Numbered from the stretch's first letter, positions 5,632 to 15,090 are shown. The stretch: 30,706 bases of DNA from Thermoproteota archaeon (GCA_037917625.1 JAVCBY010000027.1:1-30706), one strand, 5' to 3'. Notes: generated by a model from the letters alone, not told the origin. Numbers and translations: made by a program.

Positions 5632-6372
5632 TTAAAGGATCATCTCTGGATTAGATGATCTCAAAGTGAGCTCCCTAGGGCAATTGATCCTCACGGGGGT
5701 CATCTCCCCGAGCCCCCTGCAGACGTATAAGTAGCTATCCCCCTTGGAGAACAGGCCGCTCGCATACCTCCTGCCATACTTACTCGGGGTCCAGATGGGA
5801 CCTATGATAGGGAAGCAGACCTGGCCTCCATGCGTGTGCCCAGCTAGGATGACTCTAGCATCTGGATTCAGTTCTATTATATCTGGAGTATGGGATAGCA
5901 GTAGATCGACTTTACCCAGTTCACGCAACTTCCCCTTGAGGGATCCATCGTCCTCATACCAATCGATCCCGCCCATCCTGACCCCCCTATACTCAATAAC
6001 TCTATCCATTAGGAGGGTGACTCCCGCTCGCTCCAGCACCCTCATCCCGTCCAAGATCGGTATCTTAGGATCCGCCCAATGCTCGTGGTTCCCTAAGATC
6101 CCGAACTTAGGCTTATTCACTTGCTTCAGTATCCTATAGATGGGCTCTAGGCTCTTCGTCCTCTCATCGTAAGTGTCTCCCAGTATGAAGATTACGTCAA
6201 CTCCCTCTGATGCATCCCTCAGGATCTCCTCTAGCTCAGCCTCCCTCCTCCCGAAGTCATGAATGTGCATGTCCGCGAGGATCATTGCCTCTAATCCCAT
6301 GCCTGAATTCAAAACGACTCTTTCTATTCTGATATAATTCCTCAGGACCCTCTCTAAAAATTTCCTTCTCAT
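5632..6372 (-). CDS. Calcineurin-like metallophosphoesterase (YkuE-type)
   Basis: DMH, LGD, GNHE, SHTPD and GHTHGGQ motifs. Confidence 0.9.
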   Translation of the reverse strand: MRRKFLERVLRNYIRIERVVLNSGMGLEAMILADMHIHDFGRREAELEEILRDASEGVDVIFILGDTYDERTKSLEPIYRILKQVNKPKFGILGNHEHWADPKIPILDGMRVLERAGVTLLMDRVIEYRGVRMGGIDWYEDDGSLKGKLRELGKVDLLLSHTPDIIELNPDARVILAGHTHGGQVCFPIIGPIWTPSKYGRRYASGLFSKGDSYLYVCRGLGEMTPVRINCPRELTLRSSNPEMIL

Positions 6373-6629
6373 CGCTTCCTCCCTACCTTCAGCCCCATTA
6401 TCTTCGCGAAAGCCCTAGCTTCATGCACCTTCCTATTAGCTATGAACCACTCGAGCGCTTCCTCAACTTCGCCCTCATTTATCGGGTTCTCCCGGATGAA
6501 CTCGAGGAGGCCCTCCTTTATTATCTCATACCTCTGCCCCTCGCTCATCCTCTTGAAGTTCTTGAACCTACCGGTCACGTTCAAGTAGTGATGAGCCCTA
6601 CTAGCCCATTCACTCATCGATAGCCTCAA
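6369..6629 (-). CDS. Small hypothetical protein (82-86 aa)
   Basis: Stop overlaps the next start (ATGA) in an apparent operon with the ABC substrate-binding gene. ATG 6617 is an alternative start. Confidence 0.7.
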   Translation of the reverse strand: MRLSMSEWASRAHHYLNVTGRFKNFKRMSEGQRYEIIKEGLLEFIRENPINEGEVEEALEWFIANRKVHEARAFAKIMGLKVGRKR

Positions 6630-6645
6630 CTATTGACCAATAAAA

Positions 6646-7602
6646 TCATTTCTTAACTCTCCTAAAGGCGAGTACCAGTATCACTAGAATCAGAGATATT
6701 ACTAGAGCAGCTACTACGTAAGTCATATTAGTAACATAAGATATCCCACTATGAGTTACCCCAGCCTCCTCGAGCGATGAGATCACCGCGCTCAGTTTAT
6801 CTAAAACGCTCCCCTGCTCCGTGGGTGAGGGTACCTTCAGAACTCTTATCCCGAATTCCTTCGAGATCTCCATCGCCTTTCTATTGCTAGCGGTCCCATC
6901 CCCCACCACTATTATTAGATCTATCTCATCTCTCGCTTTCCTATATATTTCTGCTAGTTCGGATGGAGTTACCGGCGTCTCTTCCTCCTTAACGAGTAGG
7001 TACTTTACCTTTATCCCCAGCCATTCCACATAGTACTGTGCCCGAGGATCCGATGCTAATGCTGTCAAATTGAGTCTCGGAGTCTTTAAGAGTTCATCTA
7101 TCTTCCCCCTAACTTCCTCAAATTTCTCATCGTAGTAATTCCTACAACTCGGGTTCATCTCCTTCAACGCATCCCTCAAGGCGCTCATGAACTTAATGTA
7201 ATTGGAGGGATCCAAGATAGGCATATGGTAATTCGGGCCACCAGTCATGGGATTCCTCAGGATCCTCATCCCTTCTATCCATGGGATCTCTAGAAGTCTC
7301 GCCTTCAGCTCTCCCTTCGATACCATCTCTTTTATTGAGGCCTCGAAAGGAGTATGTGCTGTCGATACTATCAGCTCAGCCTCTCTGAGCTTCTCAATAT
7401 CGCTAGGCCTGAGCTCGTACTCGTGAGGGTCCAAGCCGGGTGGGACTAAGTAATCGACTTCATCATCAGGGCATGCTATCAATTTTACGTCATAAGCTAA
7501 ATTACTGAAAGTCACTAATATTTTCACACCGCTCCCTGAGTTAAGTGGGAGCGCTTGTAAGAGTAGGGTCGCTAGCATCACTACTACTAGCTTCCTCATC
7601 AC
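6646..7602 (-). CDS. znuA: Zn/Mn-type ABC transporter substrate-binding protein (ZnuA/TroA family) with C-terminal membrane anchor
   Basis: Signal peptide, PPGLDPHEYELRPSD motif, NYH.. LDP motif, C-terminal TM followed by RRVKK. Confidence 0.85.
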   Translation of the reverse strand: MMRKLVVVMLATLLLQALPLNSGSGVKILVTFSNLAYDVKLIACPDDEVDYLVPPGLDPHEYELRPSDIEKLREAELIVSTAHTPFEASIKEMVSKGELKARLLEIPWIEGMRILRNPMTGGPNYHMPILDPSNYIKFMSALRDALKEMNPSCRNYYDEKFEEVRGKIDELLKTPRLNLTALASDPRAQYYVEWLGIKVKYLLVKEEETPVTPSELAEIYRKARDEIDLIIVVGDGTASNRKAMEISKEFGIRVLKVPSPTEQGSVLDKLSAVISSLEEAGVTHSGISYVTNMTYVVAALVISLILVILVLAFRRVKK

Positions 7603-7650: not shown

Positions 7651-8396
7651 TGATGCTAGTGGAAGTTGAGGGGTTGAGGGTCCGTTACGGTGATGAAGTG
7701 ATATTCGAGGGGGAGTCGTTTGAGCTGAGCGGACCTGGATTGATCCTGATAATCGGGCCCAATGGAGCTGGAAAAACTACTCTGATGAGATCATTGCTAG
7801 GGCTCGTGAGGATCGATGGGAGGGTCTTCATAAATGGTGTTGATGTCACGGGGAGGCCTGAGAGAGCTGGGAGGTTCGTGGGGTATGTCCCGCAGATGGG
7901 GCCTCAGGATCTAACTGTGCCGATTAGCGTGATTGAGCTATTATCCTCATCTTTGGCGTTGAGGAAGCTTTCTAAAGGATCTGAGCATTTAAGGGAGATC
8001 GTAGATCTCTTAGGATTGAGGGAGATATTGAACCTCCCTCTCTCAAGCTTAAGCGGTGGGCAGAGGCAACGAGTCTTGCTAGCTAGAGCTCTAGCACCCG
8101 ATCCACCGATATTGATGATGGACGAACCCATCTCATCAATAGATCCCGCTGGTAGGGAGACAATAATAGATCTCATATTGGATTTATCTAAAGAGAAGTT
8201 AGTTATCTTGAGCAGCCATGATCCAGCTTTGTTCGCAAATCAAGCGAAGGGAGTAATGGCTTTGAATAGGAGGATAGTCTCTATGGGCCCCCCTGAGGAG
8301 GTCCTGAATGAGAAAGTAATGAGAGAAGTTTATGGGAGGAGTTTGATCCTCATAGAGAGGTGTCTTCATGTGGTGGATTACCATGGAGCTTATTGA
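7650..8396 (+). CDS. znuC: Metal ABC transporter ATP-binding protein (ZnuC-like)
   Basis: Walker A GPNGAGKT, GYVPQ, LSGGQRQR, Walker B MMDEP and SSHD. Start moved from 7545 to ATG 7650 to avoid overlap with znuA. Confidence 0.9.
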   Translation: MMLVEVEGLRVRYGDEVIFEGESFELSGPGLILIIGPNGAGKTTLMRSLLGLVRIDGRVFINGVDVTGRPERAGRFVGYVPQMGPQDLTVPISVIELLSSSLALRKLSKGSEHLREIVDLLGLREILNLPLSSLSGGQRQRVLLARALAPDPPILMMDEPISSIDPAGRETIIDLILDLSKEKLVILSSHDPALFANQAKGVMALNRRIVSMGPPEEVLNEKVMREVYGRSLILIERCLHVVDYHGAY

Positions 8397-9180
8397 TCCG
8401 AGATGGTTTATAGTCATCTCCCTCTCATCTATAGTATTCGCTATGATGAGCTCGATGGTCCTCTCGAGGAGGATGCTCTTCCTAGCGAGCTCTCTACCGC
8501 ATTCAGCCTTACTATCGGCTCTACTCTCCATCATAATTGAGAGGGCATTGGGCCTCCCGAGTCAAGTTGGATCCCTTATGGTGAGCGTAGCTCTCATCTC
8601 CCTCTTCTCCCTCATGATATCTAAGGGCCTGAAGACTGATATAGCTACAGCCATATTCCTATCGATGACAGTCTCCCTCACAGCAATATCCCTCTACCAT
8701 ATCCTAACGAACTTCCCCATCGCTGGGAGCGTCTGGTCTTACTTCGTCGGCGATCCCTTGCTAGTCACATGGGAGGATGTGGCGTACACAACGCTCATTT
8801 CAGTTATCACTTTGAGCATGATAATCCCATTCCTGAAGGAGCATGCGTTAATAGGGATTGATAGGGATTTCGTTAAGCTATCTGGAGTTAATATATCATT
8901 TTATGATGCTATTGCAGTGATTTCCCTAGCTATTGGGGTAGTTGGGATGCTTAGAGTAGTTGGATTCATTTTAGAGCATATAATGATACTCCTTCCCGGA
9001 GTGATAGCCGCATCTATAGCTAAAAGTTACAGGAGCTTCCTAATGTACGCTTTTATAATTTCCTTAATCGGTGGTCTAGGTGGCCTCGCCTTGAGCATCA
9101 TGACTTCCTTAGCCCCTTCAGGGTGCATAGGCCTCTTGATGCTCTCATTTTACGTATTAGCCATTAGGAGGGGGAGATAG
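8383..9180 (+). CDS. znuB: Metal ABC transporter permease (ZnuB/ABC-3 family)
   Basis: RRMLFLASSLPHSAL, YFVGDPL and VVG.IL...PG motifs with multiple TM helices. Confidence 0.88.
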   Translation: MELIDPRWFIVISLSSIVFAMMSSMVLSRRMLFLASSLPHSALLSALLSIIIERALGLPSQVGSLMVSVALISLFSLMISKGLKTDIATAIFLSMTVSLTAISLYHILTNFPIAGSVWSYFVGDPLLVTWEDVAYTTLISVITLSMIIPFLKEHALIGIDRDFVKLSGVNISFYDAIAVISLAIGVVGMLRVVGFILEHIMILLPGVIAASIAKSYRSFLMYAFIISLIGGLGGLALSIMTSLAPSGCIGLLMLSFYVLAIRRGR

Positions 9181-10797: not shown

Positions 10798-12208
10798 ATG
10801 GGAGGGCTCCTCGTTCTCAGGTTGGATGAGGCCTTCCTAGGAGGTGTCAGTTTTTCGGACCTCCGAGGTGTCTTCCTTTGGCACTGATTGCTCTTACTAC
10901 TGGAAACCCTGCTTGAAAAAGCTCTCAGACCTCCTGCTAGGATTGAGAGAGGAGAATTTCTACGAGATCGCTAGGCCCAGGGAGGAATTGGAGTGGATCG
11001 AGCGTTACAGGGGGTGGACGATAGCTGCAGTGGGGTGGGGCTTAGCTCCCACAGCATCTAAACTGACTAGGGCTGACTTAACCTTGGCTTCCTCCCCTAG
11101 TTTCAGCAATGGCTACTTATCTGAGCTTAATAATCCATATGATGACTTCGGATCCGCAGTTACTGCTGCTATGAGGCTTGATTTGAAGTTGAAGGATGAG
11201 CTCGCGATAGTATCGGATGTCACGACGGGGATGAGGGGAGTCTGCCAGTATTACCCAGGGGACAGAATTCAAACGAATCCATCTAGTGAGGAGCTGATAT
11301 TAGTAGCTGATAACCTCCCAAAGGACTTGGATAAGGAGCTAGAGTTATATGGGGAAGTCAGCAGGGATTGGAGCAGGCTTGAGGACGCTACTGTCCTCAT
11401 AATCAGGACGGATAGGAAACTAGATGCTGATGATTTCTCTAAGGCATCTATGCTGAAGCTCATCATAACTGCGACACATGGTCTCGACCATATAGATATT
11501 GAAGAAGCTAAGAGGAGAGCCATAATAATTGAGAGAGCCCCTGTTAGGGCTAGAGCTGTAGCAGAGCTCGCTCTAGGCATCATACTGGCCTTAGTTAGGG
11601 GGATAGCTTACTCGGATAGGAAGATGAGAGAACTCGAGTGGGTTAAGGGGGAAGTGAGGGGATTTGAGCTAGCTGGAAGGAGAGCTGGAGTCATATCTAT
11701 GGGGATAGTTGGCAGAGAAGTTGCTGAAGTCCTGAGGGGAATAGGAATGCATGTAGATTACTACGATAAGTATAAGATGGGTGGAAGGAGCTTAGAGAGG
11801 GTGCTGAGGGAGAGCGATATCATAGTGTTGACATCACCTCTGACTGAGGAGACTAGAGGTTTGATAGGGAGGAAGGAGATAGCTATGATGAAGGATGGAG
11901 CTATATTGGTCAACGTCGGTAGGGGGGAGCTACTGGACTTAGATGCTGCTTTAGAGGCGCTCGAAGTCGGTAAACTAGGAGGCCTCGGGTTGGACGTATA
12001 CAGTAAGGAGCCTCCTTTCGGGAATGATACTTTTGAGAGGCTGAGGAGAATGAATAACGTAATCCTCACACCGCATTTGGGAGGGAGCAGCGAGGAAGCG
12101 GAGAGGAGGATAGTATCCGATGTATTGAGGATAATGAGCAAGTGGTTCGGGAGGAGATCTGAGATCAGTGAAGATATTAGGATCTTAGGATCCCTTAATT
12201 CTATCTGA
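10798..12208 (+). CDS. D-2-hydroxyacid dehydrogenase (SerA-like) with N-terminal extra domain; 5' end probably frameshifted (intact ORF 10844-12208)
   Basis: GLDHID, AVAEL, PLTEETRGLI, NVGRG, DVYSKEP and TPHLGG catalytic motifs. ATG 10798 has a GGGTG SD and TATA TTTAAATA at 10761. Confidence 0.8.
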
Positions 12209-13738
12209 GAAAGCTTCTATAAAACTCCTTATATCGAACTCAAACTTCCGTTTTTCCTCATTCCAGAGATCCACAGGCACTTGCCAACTGGATGGTCCTG
12301 TCGCTATAGCTGGTTCCATTAACTCTAGCCTCTCCCTGAAGATTATCTTAGTCGCTCTCATCAGGGGCCCTATCATCTCCCCACTGACTAGAGCCACTCC
12401 CGTCACTCCACTGAGATCTCCCTCAGTGAAGGATAGTATGACCGAGCATACCCTTGAGAAAGCGCCTTTTATCCTGAGGAAGTCCTTGAATGGCGCATTT
12501 ATCCTAAATACGATCCCTTCTCCCATTCCCAAGCCCGTAGGGAAATAGCCCTTCACTACTATCCCAGCCTTCCTGTACTTGGAGAACCTCTCAGCAGGAT
12601 TCGGCAGGCCCATGCCCCTCAGCTGATCTCTAGTTACCCTGCCTCTCTCCTCTATCTCCTTAAGCGCGAGAAGATCTCTCTTATCTAAGGATATCTGCGG
12701 CTTCCTCGGACTATCTAGTTCCTTCAGCTCCTCAGGGGTTTCCTCAGCAAAATGGTAACCATCTATCATCCTCCCTAAGACGAGCTCCGGGCTTATGAGA
12801 GGATCTTGCATCATATTGAAGCTCAAAGCTATCCTTTTACCGAATCTAATGCCGGATCCCCTCAAGTTCTCAAATACAGGCTCGATTTGATGAGGTATAA
12901 GCAAGTTGACGTAATATATGTTGCTGGAAGTTATAAAAGCTGAGTAGGTGAATGGGAACTCATCTAGAAACCTTATCTCCTCATCTCTCGGATTCCTAAG
13001 CTCCATCAAGTATGTTGATAAGCCCAGTCTAGAGAGATAGAGTACATAAGGCCCCACTATTATGCCCTTGTTTACTAAATCCCTCACAGCCCTCGATACG
13101 GTGGCTAAAGATAAGCCGCTCTTAATAGAGAGCCTCTCAATCTTCGCCTCCCCCTCATGAATTAAAACATATAATAGTGAGTTGAGGACCCTCTTCTCCT
13201 TCTTACTCATGTGGATGAATGGATACCCTCTGGCCGCCATGAAGAGCTCCAGGAATTTCCTCAGGGTGATCTCACTCCCTTCCCTCCAGAGGCTTATGAG
13301 AGATCTTGCGATACTCCTTATGACATCGAGCGCATTCTTAGGGTTTATCGAGAGGAAGTCCTCCGGGGACCTGTAGAGGGGCAGGGTCCTAAGCCTAGCT
13401 CTTGAGGGGCACTTAGACCAGAGAGCCAGGTGGCCTGAGTAGAACCACGCTAGATCATATATCTGAGGGAAGTCGACCTCGGGTAAGAAGTTGATGAAAG
13501 CCTCTCTTTTTATTACAGCATCTACCTCGTCAACCGATAAATTCTTATCGACAATAATAAGATCTCCTTCATTAATAACGCCTAGCCTAGGGCATGAGGA
13601 CCCTTCAACTCTTCCTAGAACAACTTTCTTGTTAATATTCCTGATAGGGCTTTCTCCTAATAGAAATCGAATGTTCTGAATCTCCCTAAGGAACCTCTCC
13701 GTTATATCTTCATTTTTTTCAATCTCATTTAGATGCAC
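12185..13738 (-). CDS. Large regulator-like protein: uncharacterised N-terminal domain plus two Lrp/AsnC-like HTH-effector modules
   Basis: wHTH SKKEKRVL...SGLSLATVSRAVRDLVNKGII followed by an L..LGL linker. Second repeat LDKRDLLALKEIEERGRVT. Minus-strand TATA (TTTATATA, 13760-13767) about 22 nt upstream. Confidence 0.7.
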   Translation of the reverse strand: MHLNEIEKNEDITERFLREIQNIRFLLGESPIRNINKKVVLGRVEGSSCPRLGVINEGDLIIVDKNLSVDEVDAVIKREAFINFLPEVDFPQIYDLAWFYSGHLALWSKCPSRARLRTLPLYRSPEDFLSINPKNALDVIRSIARSLISLWREGSEITLRKFLELFMAARGYPFIHMSKKEKRVLNSLLYVLIHEGEAKIERLSIKSGLSLATVSRAVRDLVNKGIIVGPYVLYLSRLGLSTYLMELRNPRDEEIRFLDEFPFTYSAFITSSNIYYVNLLIPHQIEPVFENLRGSGIRFGKRIALSFNMMQDPLISPELVLGRMIDGYHFAEETPEELKELDSPRKPQISLDKRDLLALKEIEERGRVTRDQLRGMGLPNPAERFSKYRKAGIVVKGYFPTGLGMGEGIVFRINAPFKDFLRIKGAFSRVCSVILSFTEGDLSGVTGVALVSGEMIGPLMRATKIIFRERLELMEPAIATGPSSWQVPVDLWNEEKRKFEFDIRSFIEAFSDRIKGS

Positions 13739-13912
13739 AACAATTCATATGTTAAAGAATATATAAATGTTTTCTTGGTGAAATGAGAGGTTACTGAACC
13801 TCCAAATGAATTTAGGGAATTCCTAGGTTATCAACAAAACAAAATAAGCTATAAGATCGAAGATCCTCATAACAACATGAGGTATCTCAAGAGAATATAT
13901 GAGGTGATTTAA

Positions 13913-13954
13913 ATGAGTGGGCCAATAATCCCGCCCGGTCCGCCTATTGGATAA
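13913..13954 (+). CDS. Small ORF encoding 13-aa Pro/Gly/Ile peptide MSGPIIPPGPPIG
   Basis: SD GAGGTGA at 13901-13907, 5 nt before the ATG. GC-rich island in an AT-rich spacer. T6 tract at 13967-13972. Confidence 0.65.
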   Translation: MSGPIIPPGPPIG

Positions 13955-13962
13955 GCCAAAGT

Positions 13963-13972
13963 CCTCTTTTTT
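13963..13972 (+). terminator. Pyrimidine/oligo-T terminator CCTCTTTTTT after small ORF
   Basis: T6 tract 12 nt downstream of TAA 13954. Confidence 0.5.
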
Positions 13973-14070
13973 AATAATTACGCAAAGACAATCATTTTTG
14001 CTTGTTCCATAATTTTTTGAAAAAAATGTTGGAAGGGATAGATTGATATGCCCCCATTCCCCAGAGGCTC

Positions 14071-15090
14071 GTGCAGAAGCGTTTGCTCGTGATGAGATGT
14101 GAAAATGAGAGAGACCTTGTGAGACCTAAATACCTACAAATACTCAATTCCATCATTGAGAGGAGGCTAGGCGAAGAATGGGTCATCCTATATCATATAG
14201 AAGAGAGCTTCAGGGCTTATAGCTTCGGATTTTGTGTGAAGCTCATTGATGAAGCTGAAGAAAGCTTAGCTGAGGTCTCGCTTGAGGGGGATGAGCTCCA
14301 GCTCATCCTCCCCTGGGATAAGGTGAGGATGAAGAATTTGGAGGAAGCTACTATCCCAATGGATATAGCTATTATCAGCTTTTTCTCCTTCAGAAACCCA
14401 CAATTCATTCTAGAGGAGGGCCTCCTATCAAAAGTGCTTTTCTACATGAACCCGCACATATGGTCGGACCCATCCCTGACTGGGGCTAGCATATCCTCAA
14501 TTTACAGAAATATCTCAGAGAAGTTGGAGCTGAAGAGAAGATACTACTCATTTGTGAGGGCCGCCCACTTCATGAGTAGCATAGATAACGTTGAGGAATT
14601 CATGAAGGCCTTCAGAGCTCTAGCATCCATAGGGATAGCGCCTCCCATCGGGAAGATGGAGCTCTTCCACCTCCCGGATCTCTCGCCGATAGAGATGAAT
14701 GTTCTAAGAGTTCTATGCGCTAAGGAAGCTATAGATAGGATTCCCAGCCTTTTGGAGAGACATGTCTCCTCTTTACTCTCCGATCTAATCGGAATAACTT
14801 CCTCAGATCCTAGGAGGCTCAGGTTAGCTAGATCCATCTCCAACAGGAGCTCGAGAGAGGGGCTAACTTTGACTGAACTATCTCTCTCACTCGGGATAGA
14901 TAAAGCTTACTTATGGAGGTACGTGATACCGAAGATGGTGAACTTCTGCCTCATAAGGGCTGAGAGGGATCTATCGAGGGGGAGGGAGGTGAAGGTATAT
15001 AGGCCTAATACCTTCATGCCCCTCATAAGCGATCTAATGATGACTTACAGCATAAAGCTCTCATATCTCCTCGGGATGAGGAGTACTTAG
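14071..15090 (+). CDS. Hypothetical protein with C-terminal winged helix (true start possibly ATG 14048 via a C-run indel)
   Basis: C-terminal REGLTLTELSLSLGIDKAYLWRYVIPKM...GREVKVYRP is wHTH-like. Confidence 0.7.
   Translation: MQKRLLVMRCENERDLVRPKYLQILNSIIERRLGEEWVILYHIEESFRAYSFGFCVKLIDEAEESLAEVSLEGDELQLILPWDKVRMKNLEEATIPMDIAIISFFSFRNPQFILEEGLLSKVLFYMNPHIWSDPSLTGASISSIYRNISEKLELKRRYYSFVRAAHFMSSIDNVEEFMKAFRALASIGIAPPIGKMELFHLPDLSPIEMNVLRVLCAKEAIDRIPSLLERHVSSLLSDLIGITSSDPRRLRLARSISNRSSREGLTLTELSLSLGIDKAYLWRYVIPKMVNFCLIRAERDLSRGREVKVYRPNTFMPLISDLMMTYSIKLSYLLGMRST

Follow-up and report, generated by a model that had tools for sequence, protein, structure and literature searches.

A proline-rich gene of only 13 codons, situated between two divergent genes for larger, putative DNA-binding proteins, was recognised in a stretch of DNA of 30,706 nucleotides from a Thermoproteota archaeon (GCA_037917625.1, JAVCBY010000027.1:1-30706; "the window" denotes this whole stretch). 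We regard it with high confidence as a genuine, translated micro-gene with a promoter-like block of its own, a strong Shine-Dalgarno (SD) sequence and an oligo-T tract, and are just as convinced that it forms, with its two neighbours, here called A and B, a three-part module of a peptide gene and two lineage-specific winged helix-turn-helix (wHTH) proteins. As for its function, we tentatively favour, from comparison of sequences, a peptide that acts in trans as partner or ligand of the A and B regulators. The parts of the module in the window are:

12185-13738, minus strand: gene A, 517 aa with a GTG start (open reading frame (ORF) translation)
13901-13907, plus strand: SD sequence GAGGTGA, 5 nt upstream of the ATG at 13913
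13913-13954, plus strand: micro-gene, 13 codons and a TAA stop, start ATG at 13913, product MSGPIIPPGPPIG
13967-13972, plus strand: T6 tract, 12 nt past the stop, a putative archaeal oligo-T terminator
14071-15090, plus strand: gene B, 339 aa with a GTG start at 14071 (ORF translation)

The small reading frame, its SD sequence at 5-nt spacing and the T6 tract were all found where the original prediction, made from this sequence, had placed them; written without the initiator Met, the product is SGPIIPPGPPIG. An alternative start at ATG 14048, proposed at the same time for the downstream gene, is in the wrong frame for the 339-aa ORF and runs into stops. A database record starts B at TTG 14083 (335 aa) rather than at GTG 14071. 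The spacer between A and B (13739-14070) is 332 bp long and has a GC content of 0.352, or 0.324 without the micro-ORF, which itself reaches 0.548 versus 0.472 for the window. A loose ORF filter applied to the 1.22-Mb genome bin that contains the window (G000; 1,223,236 bases, 84% complete) returned 7 matches, two of them with an SD sequence, one of which is this micro-ORF. The other SD-bearing match (C24) was rejected as a second micro-gene, as it sits antisense within a 413-aa ORF.

The evidence that the frame is coding comes from 15 Korarchaeum-like genomes of the same genus in which A and B lie on one contig. In all of them the two genes form a divergent pair, approximately 335-450 bp apart, with the ORF at the same place in the spacer. 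If two partial contigs with the region upstream of the B orthologue are included, the micro-ORF is present in 17 of 17 assembled orthologous regions; it is likewise present in 10 of 10 orthologous-type metagenome contigs, some of which derive from the same organisms as the species genomes and are therefore not independent. The orthologues follow the consensus M-x-G-P-[IVMF]-x-P-P-x-P-P-[IV]-x, to which clade 3 adds 1-3 N-terminal residues, and one genome (the G008 type) has the variant MNVPPAGPPAPP, whose frame stops directly after Pro-Pro. Among the 14 copies that align in register (91 pairs), the six fixed codons, one for Gly and five for Pro, do not differ at all at codon positions 1 and 2, while at their third positions a mean of 3.54 of 6 differ per pair. 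Identity over the core is 68.5%, compared with 47-48% for the 60 nt on each side, and the stop codons vary between TAA, TGA and TAG. Because the fixed codons vary at third positions only and the frame is present in every orthologous region, the comparison indicates that the micro-ORF is a protein-coding micro-gene under purifying selection. Nowhere among the orthologous loci was it absent or frame-disrupted: SD sequence, frame and peptide are kept, with variation at synonymous sites.

Constraint extends beyond the prolines. Gly3, an aliphatic or aromatic residue at position 5 and I or V at position 12 are each found in 14 of 14 copies. The amino-acid palindrome IPPGPPI, which had been singled out as a feature of the peptide, is by contrast not conserved, other copies reading IPPDPPI, HPPAPPV or CPPLPPI. 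An SD sequence (GAGGTGA, GGAGG(T) or GGGTGA) precedes the start in 15 of 15 orthologues and in most of the paralogue-type micro-genes described below, and a run of at least four T begins 11-15 nt past the stop in 13 of the 15. No conserved RNA structure was detected across the 15 orthologues (RNAalifold, -1.68 kcal/mol, 4 pairs). Among close relatives, peptide positions 2, 9 and 13 are polymorphic (S/N/D, G/D and G/V) and the remainder is fixed; in one metagenome contig (L111) an A protein 98% identical to that of the window accompanies a peptide with two replacements (G9D and G13V).

The micro-gene is not confined to the orthologous locus. We examined 25 further loci with an A gene; 23 are paralogue loci within the genus, and genus g2 and another order contribute one each. 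The strict filter, which asks for a Pro-rich ORF of 11-18 codons lying 10-230 nt from either end of A, was passed by 16 of the 25, and relaxed scans added four, three of them without a canonical start codon; the remaining five, two of which are cut by contig ends, are without a micro-gene. Elsewhere in the 179 kb scanned the same strict filter gave 22 matches. At the three loci without a canonical start (L021, L081 and L083) the peptide frame is kept and CTG, or none of the usual codons, stands where ATG, GTG or TTG would be expected; these copies are either decayed or initiated non-canonically. Other genera of the A family have a micro-gene divergent from A at five of 11 A loci, none at five, and a doubtful one at the last. 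In three genomes of other genera the peptide is M[QE]GPG.P.PVPPDAPG, encoded with synonymous differences, and MPPPLPPRPPVIPDPPE and MGPPPLPPFPPIPPPDPE are found in addition.

Every micro-gene of the family lies on the strand opposite to A, either diverging from the A start, usually at a distance of 149-177 nt, or converging on the A stop. The divergent position is seen in the window type, at L018, L020, L072, L073 and L090 and in genera g2 and g3; in g2, B lies on the far side. Micro-genes convergent on the 3' end of A, 10-80 nt from its stop, occur at L074, L075, L078, L079 and L082, and at L083, L084, L085, L087 and L089 the micro-gene is placed after B and runs towards A. The commonest layouts are a micro-gene divergent from A with B converging on the other end of A, and B followed by a co-directional micro-gene that converges on A. 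B was found in all 11 modules checked. The co-occurrence of the three genes, proposed as a check by the original prediction, thus holds across genomes and likewise across paralogous copies, and the linkage of A and B to the micro-gene persists, on the evidence of these arrangements, through gene duplication and rearrangement.

In total, 40 loci provide 38 distinct peptides of 11-18 aa with a mean Pro content of 0.41 (in this table the peptide of L104 was read one codon too long). Across Korarchaeia they have a common core, G-P-x-x-P-P-x-P-P or variants of it, and at least one Pro-Pro pair is present in 37 of the 38. The peptide MMENGPVVPAPLPSVPES (L100 and L121, possibly one organism) has no such pair, and two more types have one weak pair only. 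Each paralogue lineage possesses its own peptide type, such as MSGP[YL][IV]PPSPPPT, MGPK[LFV]PPSP[PK]P..., MGLPPSTPVPPLPEP[NS]T, M(E)GP[IV]WPPCP(V)E, MGPIMPPNPPVQPPE, MGIGPYIPPYPPPT, MEGTPLVPPCPPPQ and MPMKGPKIPPYPPPSPPE, and the peptides differ within genomes that have several modules; for instance, G001 encodes MDMMIGPIHPPAPPVK, MGPKFPPSPKPIPQ, MGLPPSTPVPPLPEPST and MGPIWPPCPVE. The peptides MSGPLIPPSPPPT and MGPKLPPSPPPLPD would be examples of ones non-cognate to the module of the window. The paralogue types resemble each other in peptide pattern and not in DNA sequence. The DNA pattern GGNCCN7CCNCCN4CCNCCN, tried as a probe for the family in 40 species genomes of the class, proved unspecific in GC-rich genera, where controls score equally, and the six extra pattern matches that were followed (L092-L097), five of them not near A or B, were rejected as micro-genes.

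Some modules depart from these layouts. At L079 (G020:C15) and L082 (G001:C4) B is followed by two tandem A genes and a single micro-gene (MGLPPSTPVPPLPEP[NS]T), which lies 10 nt past the stop of the distal A. In one paralogue lineage, at L020 (3256-4464) and L090 (1-1438), the micro-gene is followed by a co-directional, conserved 479-aa protein, for which no match was found in Pfam, PADLOC or NCBIfam. L092 (G001:C4:870000-880000) is a decaying module, in which frameshifted or split A and B genes stand side by side (5875-7030 and 7678-8800) and no micro-gene is detectable.

The predicted structure of protein A begins with an N-terminal domain of approximately 170 aa without a matched fold and continues with two tandem Lrp/AsnC-like units, each a wHTH and a RAM-like domain. 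Its AlphaFold model, computed from 19 orthologues, has a pLDDT of 86.7 and a pTM of 0.84. The best Foldseek match is NirDL (4ch7; E 1.1e-7), which has a fused double Lrp/AsnC fold, and more than 20 Lrp/AsnC regulators match with E-values from 2.5e-3 to 3e-2. At the sequence level, Pfam HTH_24 matches residues 189-227 (E 9.4e-5; 22.4 bits versus a cut-off of 21.9) and AsnC_trans_reg has no match in A. Judged by the model, A is a fused double Lrp/AsnC-like regulator in which the wHTH and RAM arrangement of that class is present at fold level, twice in tandem. The first wHTH also has weak PADLOC matches to CasR (E 8e-6) and Csa3 (E 1e-4), and scores 19.1 bits against NCBIfam cas_HTH, whose cut-off is 60.2. 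Residues 1-175 gave no usable match in the ESM Atlas. Over 16 diverse members of the family 19 columns are invariant, including the tryptophans W98, W107, W485 and W492.

Protein B (model pLDDT 86.9) appears to end in an ArsR/SmtB/MarR-type wHTH of the dimeric kind of approximately 100-140 residues. Residues 190-339, approximately, match HlyU (4k2e) in VIA-align with Z 8.9 (root-mean-square deviation 3.4, 92 residues aligned), and CzrA and SmtB reach Z 8.6, where best Z-values of 7-8 are common for unmatched models. Pfam has no match in B, and for residues 1-190 neither a recognised fold nor a usable ESM Atlas match was obtained. The B of the window is a short form of a family of proteins otherwise of approximately 480-550 aa, to whose long paralogues phmmer links it. 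The prediction of a complex of A with B scored 0.00, a value that has no bearing on binding. The idea that the peptide mimics the invariant GIAPPIGK loop of B was abandoned, as the B paralogues do not retain this loop.

Phmmer separates two families, A (approximately 490-530 aa) and B (339 aa here, longer elsewhere). Orthologues of each are present in 18 of 20 genomes of the genus, the two genomes without them being bins of 70% completeness; a single genome can have as many as 7 matches to A. All named homologues of A and B are from Candidatus Korarchaeum or from metagenome-assembled genomes of Korarchaeota, and a search of genome contigs for related loci with P0004 returned one locus, titled uncultured Nitrososphaerota archaeon. 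The A profile, compared with 1.84 billion representatives, found 32 clusters at E ≤ 1e-30 and 125 at E ≤ 1e-10. Ten distant full-length clusters were looked up, of which three are named, one as Korarchaeota/Thermoproteota and two as Asgard archaea; the distant full-length homologues P0073 and P0094 and the members of their clusters, of approximately 535-550 aa (E 1e-19 to 1e-29 against the A profile), are annotated as Asgard archaea.

The spacer contains conserved sequence blocks in addition to the micro-gene:

13711-13721, minus strand: box 1, the 11-mer TGAAAAAAATG, within codons 6-9 of A; candidate operator
13760-13767, minus strand: TATA-like element TTTATATA, 22-29 nt upstream of the GTG of A, a conserved block in the 15-spacer alignment
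13830-13850, plus strand: A-rich block ATCAACAAAACAAAATAAGCT, 63-83 nt upstream of the micro-ORF ATG, conserved in the 15-spacer alignment
14018-14028, plus strand: box 2, the 11-mer TGAAAAAAATG, at -53 to -43 from the GTG of B, just upstream of the TATA-like element of B; candidate operator
14038-14049, plus strand: TATA-like element ATAGATTGATAT, 22-33 nt before GTG 14071

The inverted pair of TGAAAAAAATG boxes had been missed by the original prediction and goes beyond it. In the 1,223,236 bases of the genome the 11-mer has only these two exact copies, approximately 300 bp apart and flanking the micro-gene (two matches in the window versus 0.34 expected). Box 1 is kept in the 15 orthologous loci with at most one mismatch, even at third codon positions of A, and box 2 in 15 of 15 orthologous spacers with 0-2 mismatches. 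A scan of 36 paralogue and other-genus loci did not find the 11-mer, and nothing consistent emerged as a shared repeat or operator among the paralogue loci. We interpret the boxes as a candidate operator pair of the module's own regulators or, alternatively, as a DNA-looping site. Of the remaining blocks, ATCAACAAAACAAAATAAGCT is the putative promoter of the micro-gene and TTTATATA that of A. ATAGATTGATAT, in whose place clade 2 has TTTATATAT and clade 3 ATTTAAT, would be B's own promoter. Because these TATA-like elements stand 22-33 nt before the GTG starts, the mRNA of A is probably leaderless, and that of B would be so too.

The genes around the module in the window are of a housekeeping kind, namely those for an ABC transporter, a NikR-like protein, a phosphatase, a 2-hydroxyacid dehydrogenase, a thioredoxin-like protein, a flavin reductase, a recombinase, a radical-SAM enzyme and an aminoacyl-tRNA synthetase, and neither a tRNA nor a remnant of a tRNA or att site was found in the window. 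This module lies outside any cas locus; at least nine paralogous modules, by contrast, adjoin cas or CARF genes, an association that the original prediction did not include. In particular, a type I-A-like operon of G015 (L075/L109; L109 = G015:C2:603000-622900) runs Cas7-Cas5-(381 aa)-Cas3 and ends in B and then A, and G002 (L110, G002:C15:1-14000) has the same order from Cas7 to Cas3 and B. In both operons an unlabelled protein of 351-381 aa stands between Cas5 and Cas3, the latter with HD and helicase domains. Cas6, a CARF protein, the pair Cas1/Csa1 and a CRISPR array (24-nt repeat ending GTTGAAAG) lie near these operons, G015 itself having the Cas1/Csa1 pair, the CARF protein and the array. 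Cas6 is also found at L074 and L073 and Cas6 homologues at L078 and L089, RAMP proteins adjoin A at L080 and L085, and CARF proteins occur at L075 and at the g2 module L098. The remaining modules have neighbours without annotation, except for one beside a PaaK-like ligase. Possibly, A and B are CRISPR-associated regulators that had escaped recognition.

The peptide, in the trans-acting role that we tentatively favour, would be the cognate partner or ligand of A and B. It would bind them, probably as a polyproline-II helix, and so change their DNA binding or their assembly. At the window locus it is the genome-unique inverted boxes that the regulators would target; since these stand on both sides of the micro-gene, one inside the 5' end of A and the other ahead of the promoter of B, the two regulator genes and the peptide gene would constitute a feedback circuit. 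Paralogous copies would use the same circuit to control the adjoining CRISPR-cas genes. The peptide might either stay in the cell or be released and re-imported, in the manner of leaderless communication peptides (LCPs) or SHPs. Action in trans is favoured over a leader acting in cis because the position of the micro-gene relative to other genes varies, whereas its adjacency to A is constant. Stalling at Pro-Pro is moreover not the sole conserved property, since MMENGPVVPAPLPSVPES has no such pair and two types have a weak one only. The conserved non-Pro positions, the lineage-specific peptide types and the different types within one genome would likewise fit a ligand, and the extra domains of A and B, on their models both proteins of a DNA-binding type, could hold it. 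The micro-gene also looks self-contained, with its T-tract in 13 of 15 orthologues and no conserved RNA structure. That the flanking regulators sense the peptide was one of two options in the original prediction; this part is consistent with all findings and strengthened by the family-wide linkage, while no evidence was seen for the processing or cyclisation suggested with it, as the copies of the module share no conserved enzyme gene.

Several observations weigh against a ligand of A and B. None of the peptides has a secretion signal, and the module is not linked to any transporter. That peptide and A diversify together would follow from linkage alone and is no proof of recognition, and two loci (L101 and L108) have A and B without a detectable micro-gene. 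The window stretch was found in two hot-spring metagenome runs only, both of DNA, and in no RNA run. Three further observations fit ribosome stalling at least as readily: 13 of 14 orthologues have G, A, D or N between their two Pro pairs; 31 of the 38 distinct peptides contain at least one of the triplets that PMC5811046 gives for E. coli as strongly stalling and EF-P-dependent (PPP, PPG/GPP, PPD/DPP, APP and PPN); and many modules lie at cas loci, where a bacterial proline-codon RNA toxin has recently been described.

These last points raise the alternative that the micro-gene is a translation-arrest element similar to CreT, i.e., a proline-codon toxin, which we consider unlikely. Once a small, strongly SD-driven mRNA is derepressed, ribosomes would pile up or stall on its Pro-Pro codons and titrate aIF5A or translation capacity; the outcome would be either growth arrest, in the manner of a toxin-antitoxin module or of an abortive-infection guard of cas loci, or the sensing of aIF5A or proline status, and A and/or B would be transcriptional repressors in the role that CreA-Cascade has in CreTA. 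A near-perfect SD sequence (GAGGTGA or GGAGGTGA), the near-universal Pro-Pro pair, the G008-type frame that ends on Pro-Pro (MNVPPAGPPAPP-stop) and the modules that adjoin cas or CARF genes agree with it, as do Pro codons that vary freely among synonyms, which the CreT mini-ORF of P. aeruginosa tolerates as far as its description goes (bioRxiv 10.64898/2026.06.02.729485). However, conservation exceeds the Pro pairs and includes Gly3, the hydrophobic positions 5 and 12 and lineage-specific non-Pro residues; one family member has no Pro-Pro pair at all; and the ORFs have 11-18 codons as opposed to the four reported for CreT. A GC-rich hairpin downstream is likewise missing, as the region of the micro-gene folds no better than shuffled sequence on either strand (z 0.39 and 0.62), the consensus fold of the 15 orthologues is negligible, and no hairpin terminator was found at the locus by a scan for bacterial-type promoters and terminators, a type of scan uninformative for an archaeon. 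No CreA-like repeat above background occurs near the G015 micro-gene: the best repeat-like match there has 9 mismatches in 24, the same as random 1-kb windows, in a single locus where highly degenerate repeats could escape. Furthermore, the module of the window is vertically inherited at a fixed place in 18 of 20 species and outside a cas locus, unlike most addiction modules.

It is decidedly improbable, in our view, that the product has some other micro-protein role, whether as a small, stoichiometric component of an A/B or Cas complex, or as substrate or precursor for unlinked enzymes, with wHTH-like domains that recognise the peptide and not DNA. Folds of the wHTH type do serve as peptide-binding elements in pathways for ribosomally synthesised and post-translationally modified peptides, coding selection and linkage would be explained as well as by a ligand, and a B12-radical-SAM gene lies 4.7 kb from the micro-gene in the window. 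Yet the module has no conserved enzyme gene, 11-18 aa are too short for a leader and a core, and the unique inverted boxes together with the Lrp/AsnC and ArsR/MarR folds point to DNA binding. A leader peptide acting in cis, the second option of the original prediction, would let ribosome progress through PPGPP set the read-through from the micro-ORF into 14071-15090. At the window and 14 orthologous loci the micro-ORF is indeed co-directional with B, 116-190 nt upstream of it, with a T-tract in between, and Pro-Pro motifs are known stallers. This option is nevertheless very improbable: in other family members the micro-gene is directed at the 3' end of A, or comes after B, and the family has no fixed downstream gene, its own T-tract follows the stop in most orthologues, B has a TATA-like element at the distance expected for a leaderless mRNA, and neither alternative nor conserved RNA structure was found. 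That the GC-rich island is a DNA or RNA element, such as an operator or small RNA, and the frame incidental, is suggested by its location in a regulatory spacer between two regulator genes; it is close to refuted by the restriction of variation in fixed codons to third positions, by frame, start, SD spacing and stop being kept in all 17 orthologous regions with three different stop codons, by the paralogue types, which share the peptide pattern and not the DNA sequence, and by the lack of an Rfam family in the window and of conserved structure.

Several known systems come close to the module, among them the Rgg/SHP pairs of streptococci, which belong to the RRNPP superfamily. According to PMC3679016, shp genes are divergent from, or convergent on, the genes of their Rgg receptors. 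The korarchaeal module resembles this system, as described there, in that a tiny peptide gene lies beside the gene of a cytosolic DNA-binding receptor, on the opposite strand and in either orientation, and in that a genome has several paralogous pairs, each with its own peptide. It differs in its receptor, a predicted fused double Lrp/AsnC fold with an ArsR/MarR-type protein in place of an HTH-TPR protein, in its Pro-rich peptides of 11-18 aa without a pro-peptide, and in its hosts, which are Archaea (Korarchaeia). The analogy to RRNPP systems drawn by the original prediction stands for the logic of a tiny gene beside a regulator and fails for the receptors, which are not TPR proteins: the model of A leads to Lrp/AsnC and NirDL and that of B to ArsR/SmtB/MarR wHTH proteins only, and Pfam shows no TPR. 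Nor was a pro-peptide with export signal, processed to 5-10 aa, found, since the peptide gene is adjacent but 11-18 aa leave no room for a signal sequence.

There is also a likeness to the leaderless peptides of RopB in Firmicutes, for which PMC10518010 reports 8-10 aa encoded by ultrasmall ORFs that are transcribed divergently from ropB. Here too an ultrasmall ORF directly encodes the final peptide, with neither a leader nor sites for processing, and in loci of the divergent kind it points away from the presumed receptor gene. LCPs are, however, in that account mostly 8-10 aa long and aliphatic or aromatic, while the korarchaeal peptides have on average 41% Pro and their presumed receptors are not homologous to RopB or other members of the Rgg clan. 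The CreT toxin was described from type I-F cas loci of P. aeruginosa (bioRxiv 10.64898/2026.06.02.729485), in the terms of that preprint as a 15-nt ORF with a required hairpin, repressed by the crRNA-like CreA with Cascade. Shared with it are an SD-driven mini-ORF (GAGGTGA) with consecutive, synonymously interchangeable Pro codons, of which the window peptide has two pairs, and, for the paralogous modules only, a position in or next to cas operons. By contrast, the korarchaeal ORF has 11-18 codons with conserved non-Pro residues, no hairpin and two linked protein regulators. The CRISPR repeat of G015 has no copy with five or fewer mismatches in the contigs of G000.

Pro-rich leaders and upstream ORFs, such as bacterial mgtL, sense EF-P/eIF5A or proline. 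At loci of the window type a short Pro-Pro ORF upstream of a co-directional gene recalls them; it differs in that the family has no fixed downstream gene and no alternative RNA structures, in its own T-tract and in the promoter-like element of B. Protein A repeats the wHTH and RAM-like unit twice, as does the fused NirDL, and is linked to Csa3 and CasR by the weak matches of its first wHTH and by the many copies in cas loci. It differs from Csa3 and CasR, and from Lrp/AsnC regulators, in having no CARF domain and an extra N-terminal domain of approximately 170 aa, and the known effectors of Lrp/AsnC proteins are, by the titles of the PDB matches, amino acids and not gene-encoded peptides. The resemblance of the module to known peptide-regulator cassettes is one of layout only; receptor fold and peptide type differ, and the parts are unrelated and belong to another domain of life. 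In the literature we found no description of a system of micro-gene, A and B.

Genes of 11-18 codons are invisible to gene callers, and here comparison alone reveals one under strict purifying selection that has stayed locked to two regulators despite many duplications. Should the peptide be a ligand, this would be the first gene-encoded peptide-regulator system in Archaea and a new class of effector for the Lrp/AsnC fold; if it is an arrest element, the principle of the proline-codon toxin would extend to archaea, with antidotes of protein and not of RNA. Either way, the module is an unrecognised accessory of korarchaeal type I-A and type III CRISPR-cas loci. A bolder generalisation, which we regard as rather doubtful, is that Korarchaeia possess gene-encoded peptide/receptor cassettes, the first in Archaea, that combine a leaderless polyproline ligand of 11-18 aa with a double-Lrp/AsnC receptor and an ArsR/MarR-type partner. 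The peptide might leave the cell and be re-imported as a cell-cell signal. Orthogonal paralogous cassettes would switch CRISPR-cas operons on or off, and the window locus a housekeeping circuit, and the logic of Rgg/SHP and RopB/LCP would have been invented independently with unrelated parts. A short, synthesisable peptide and two defined DNA boxes make the question directly testable.

Apart from the module, the genome with the window contains three near-identical short frames (MNPGPPAP.AGILPS) with common upstream bases, at C4:1081-1128, C37:11503-11550 and C52:22765-22812, which are probably copies of a repeated RNA gene or element outside the micro-gene family.

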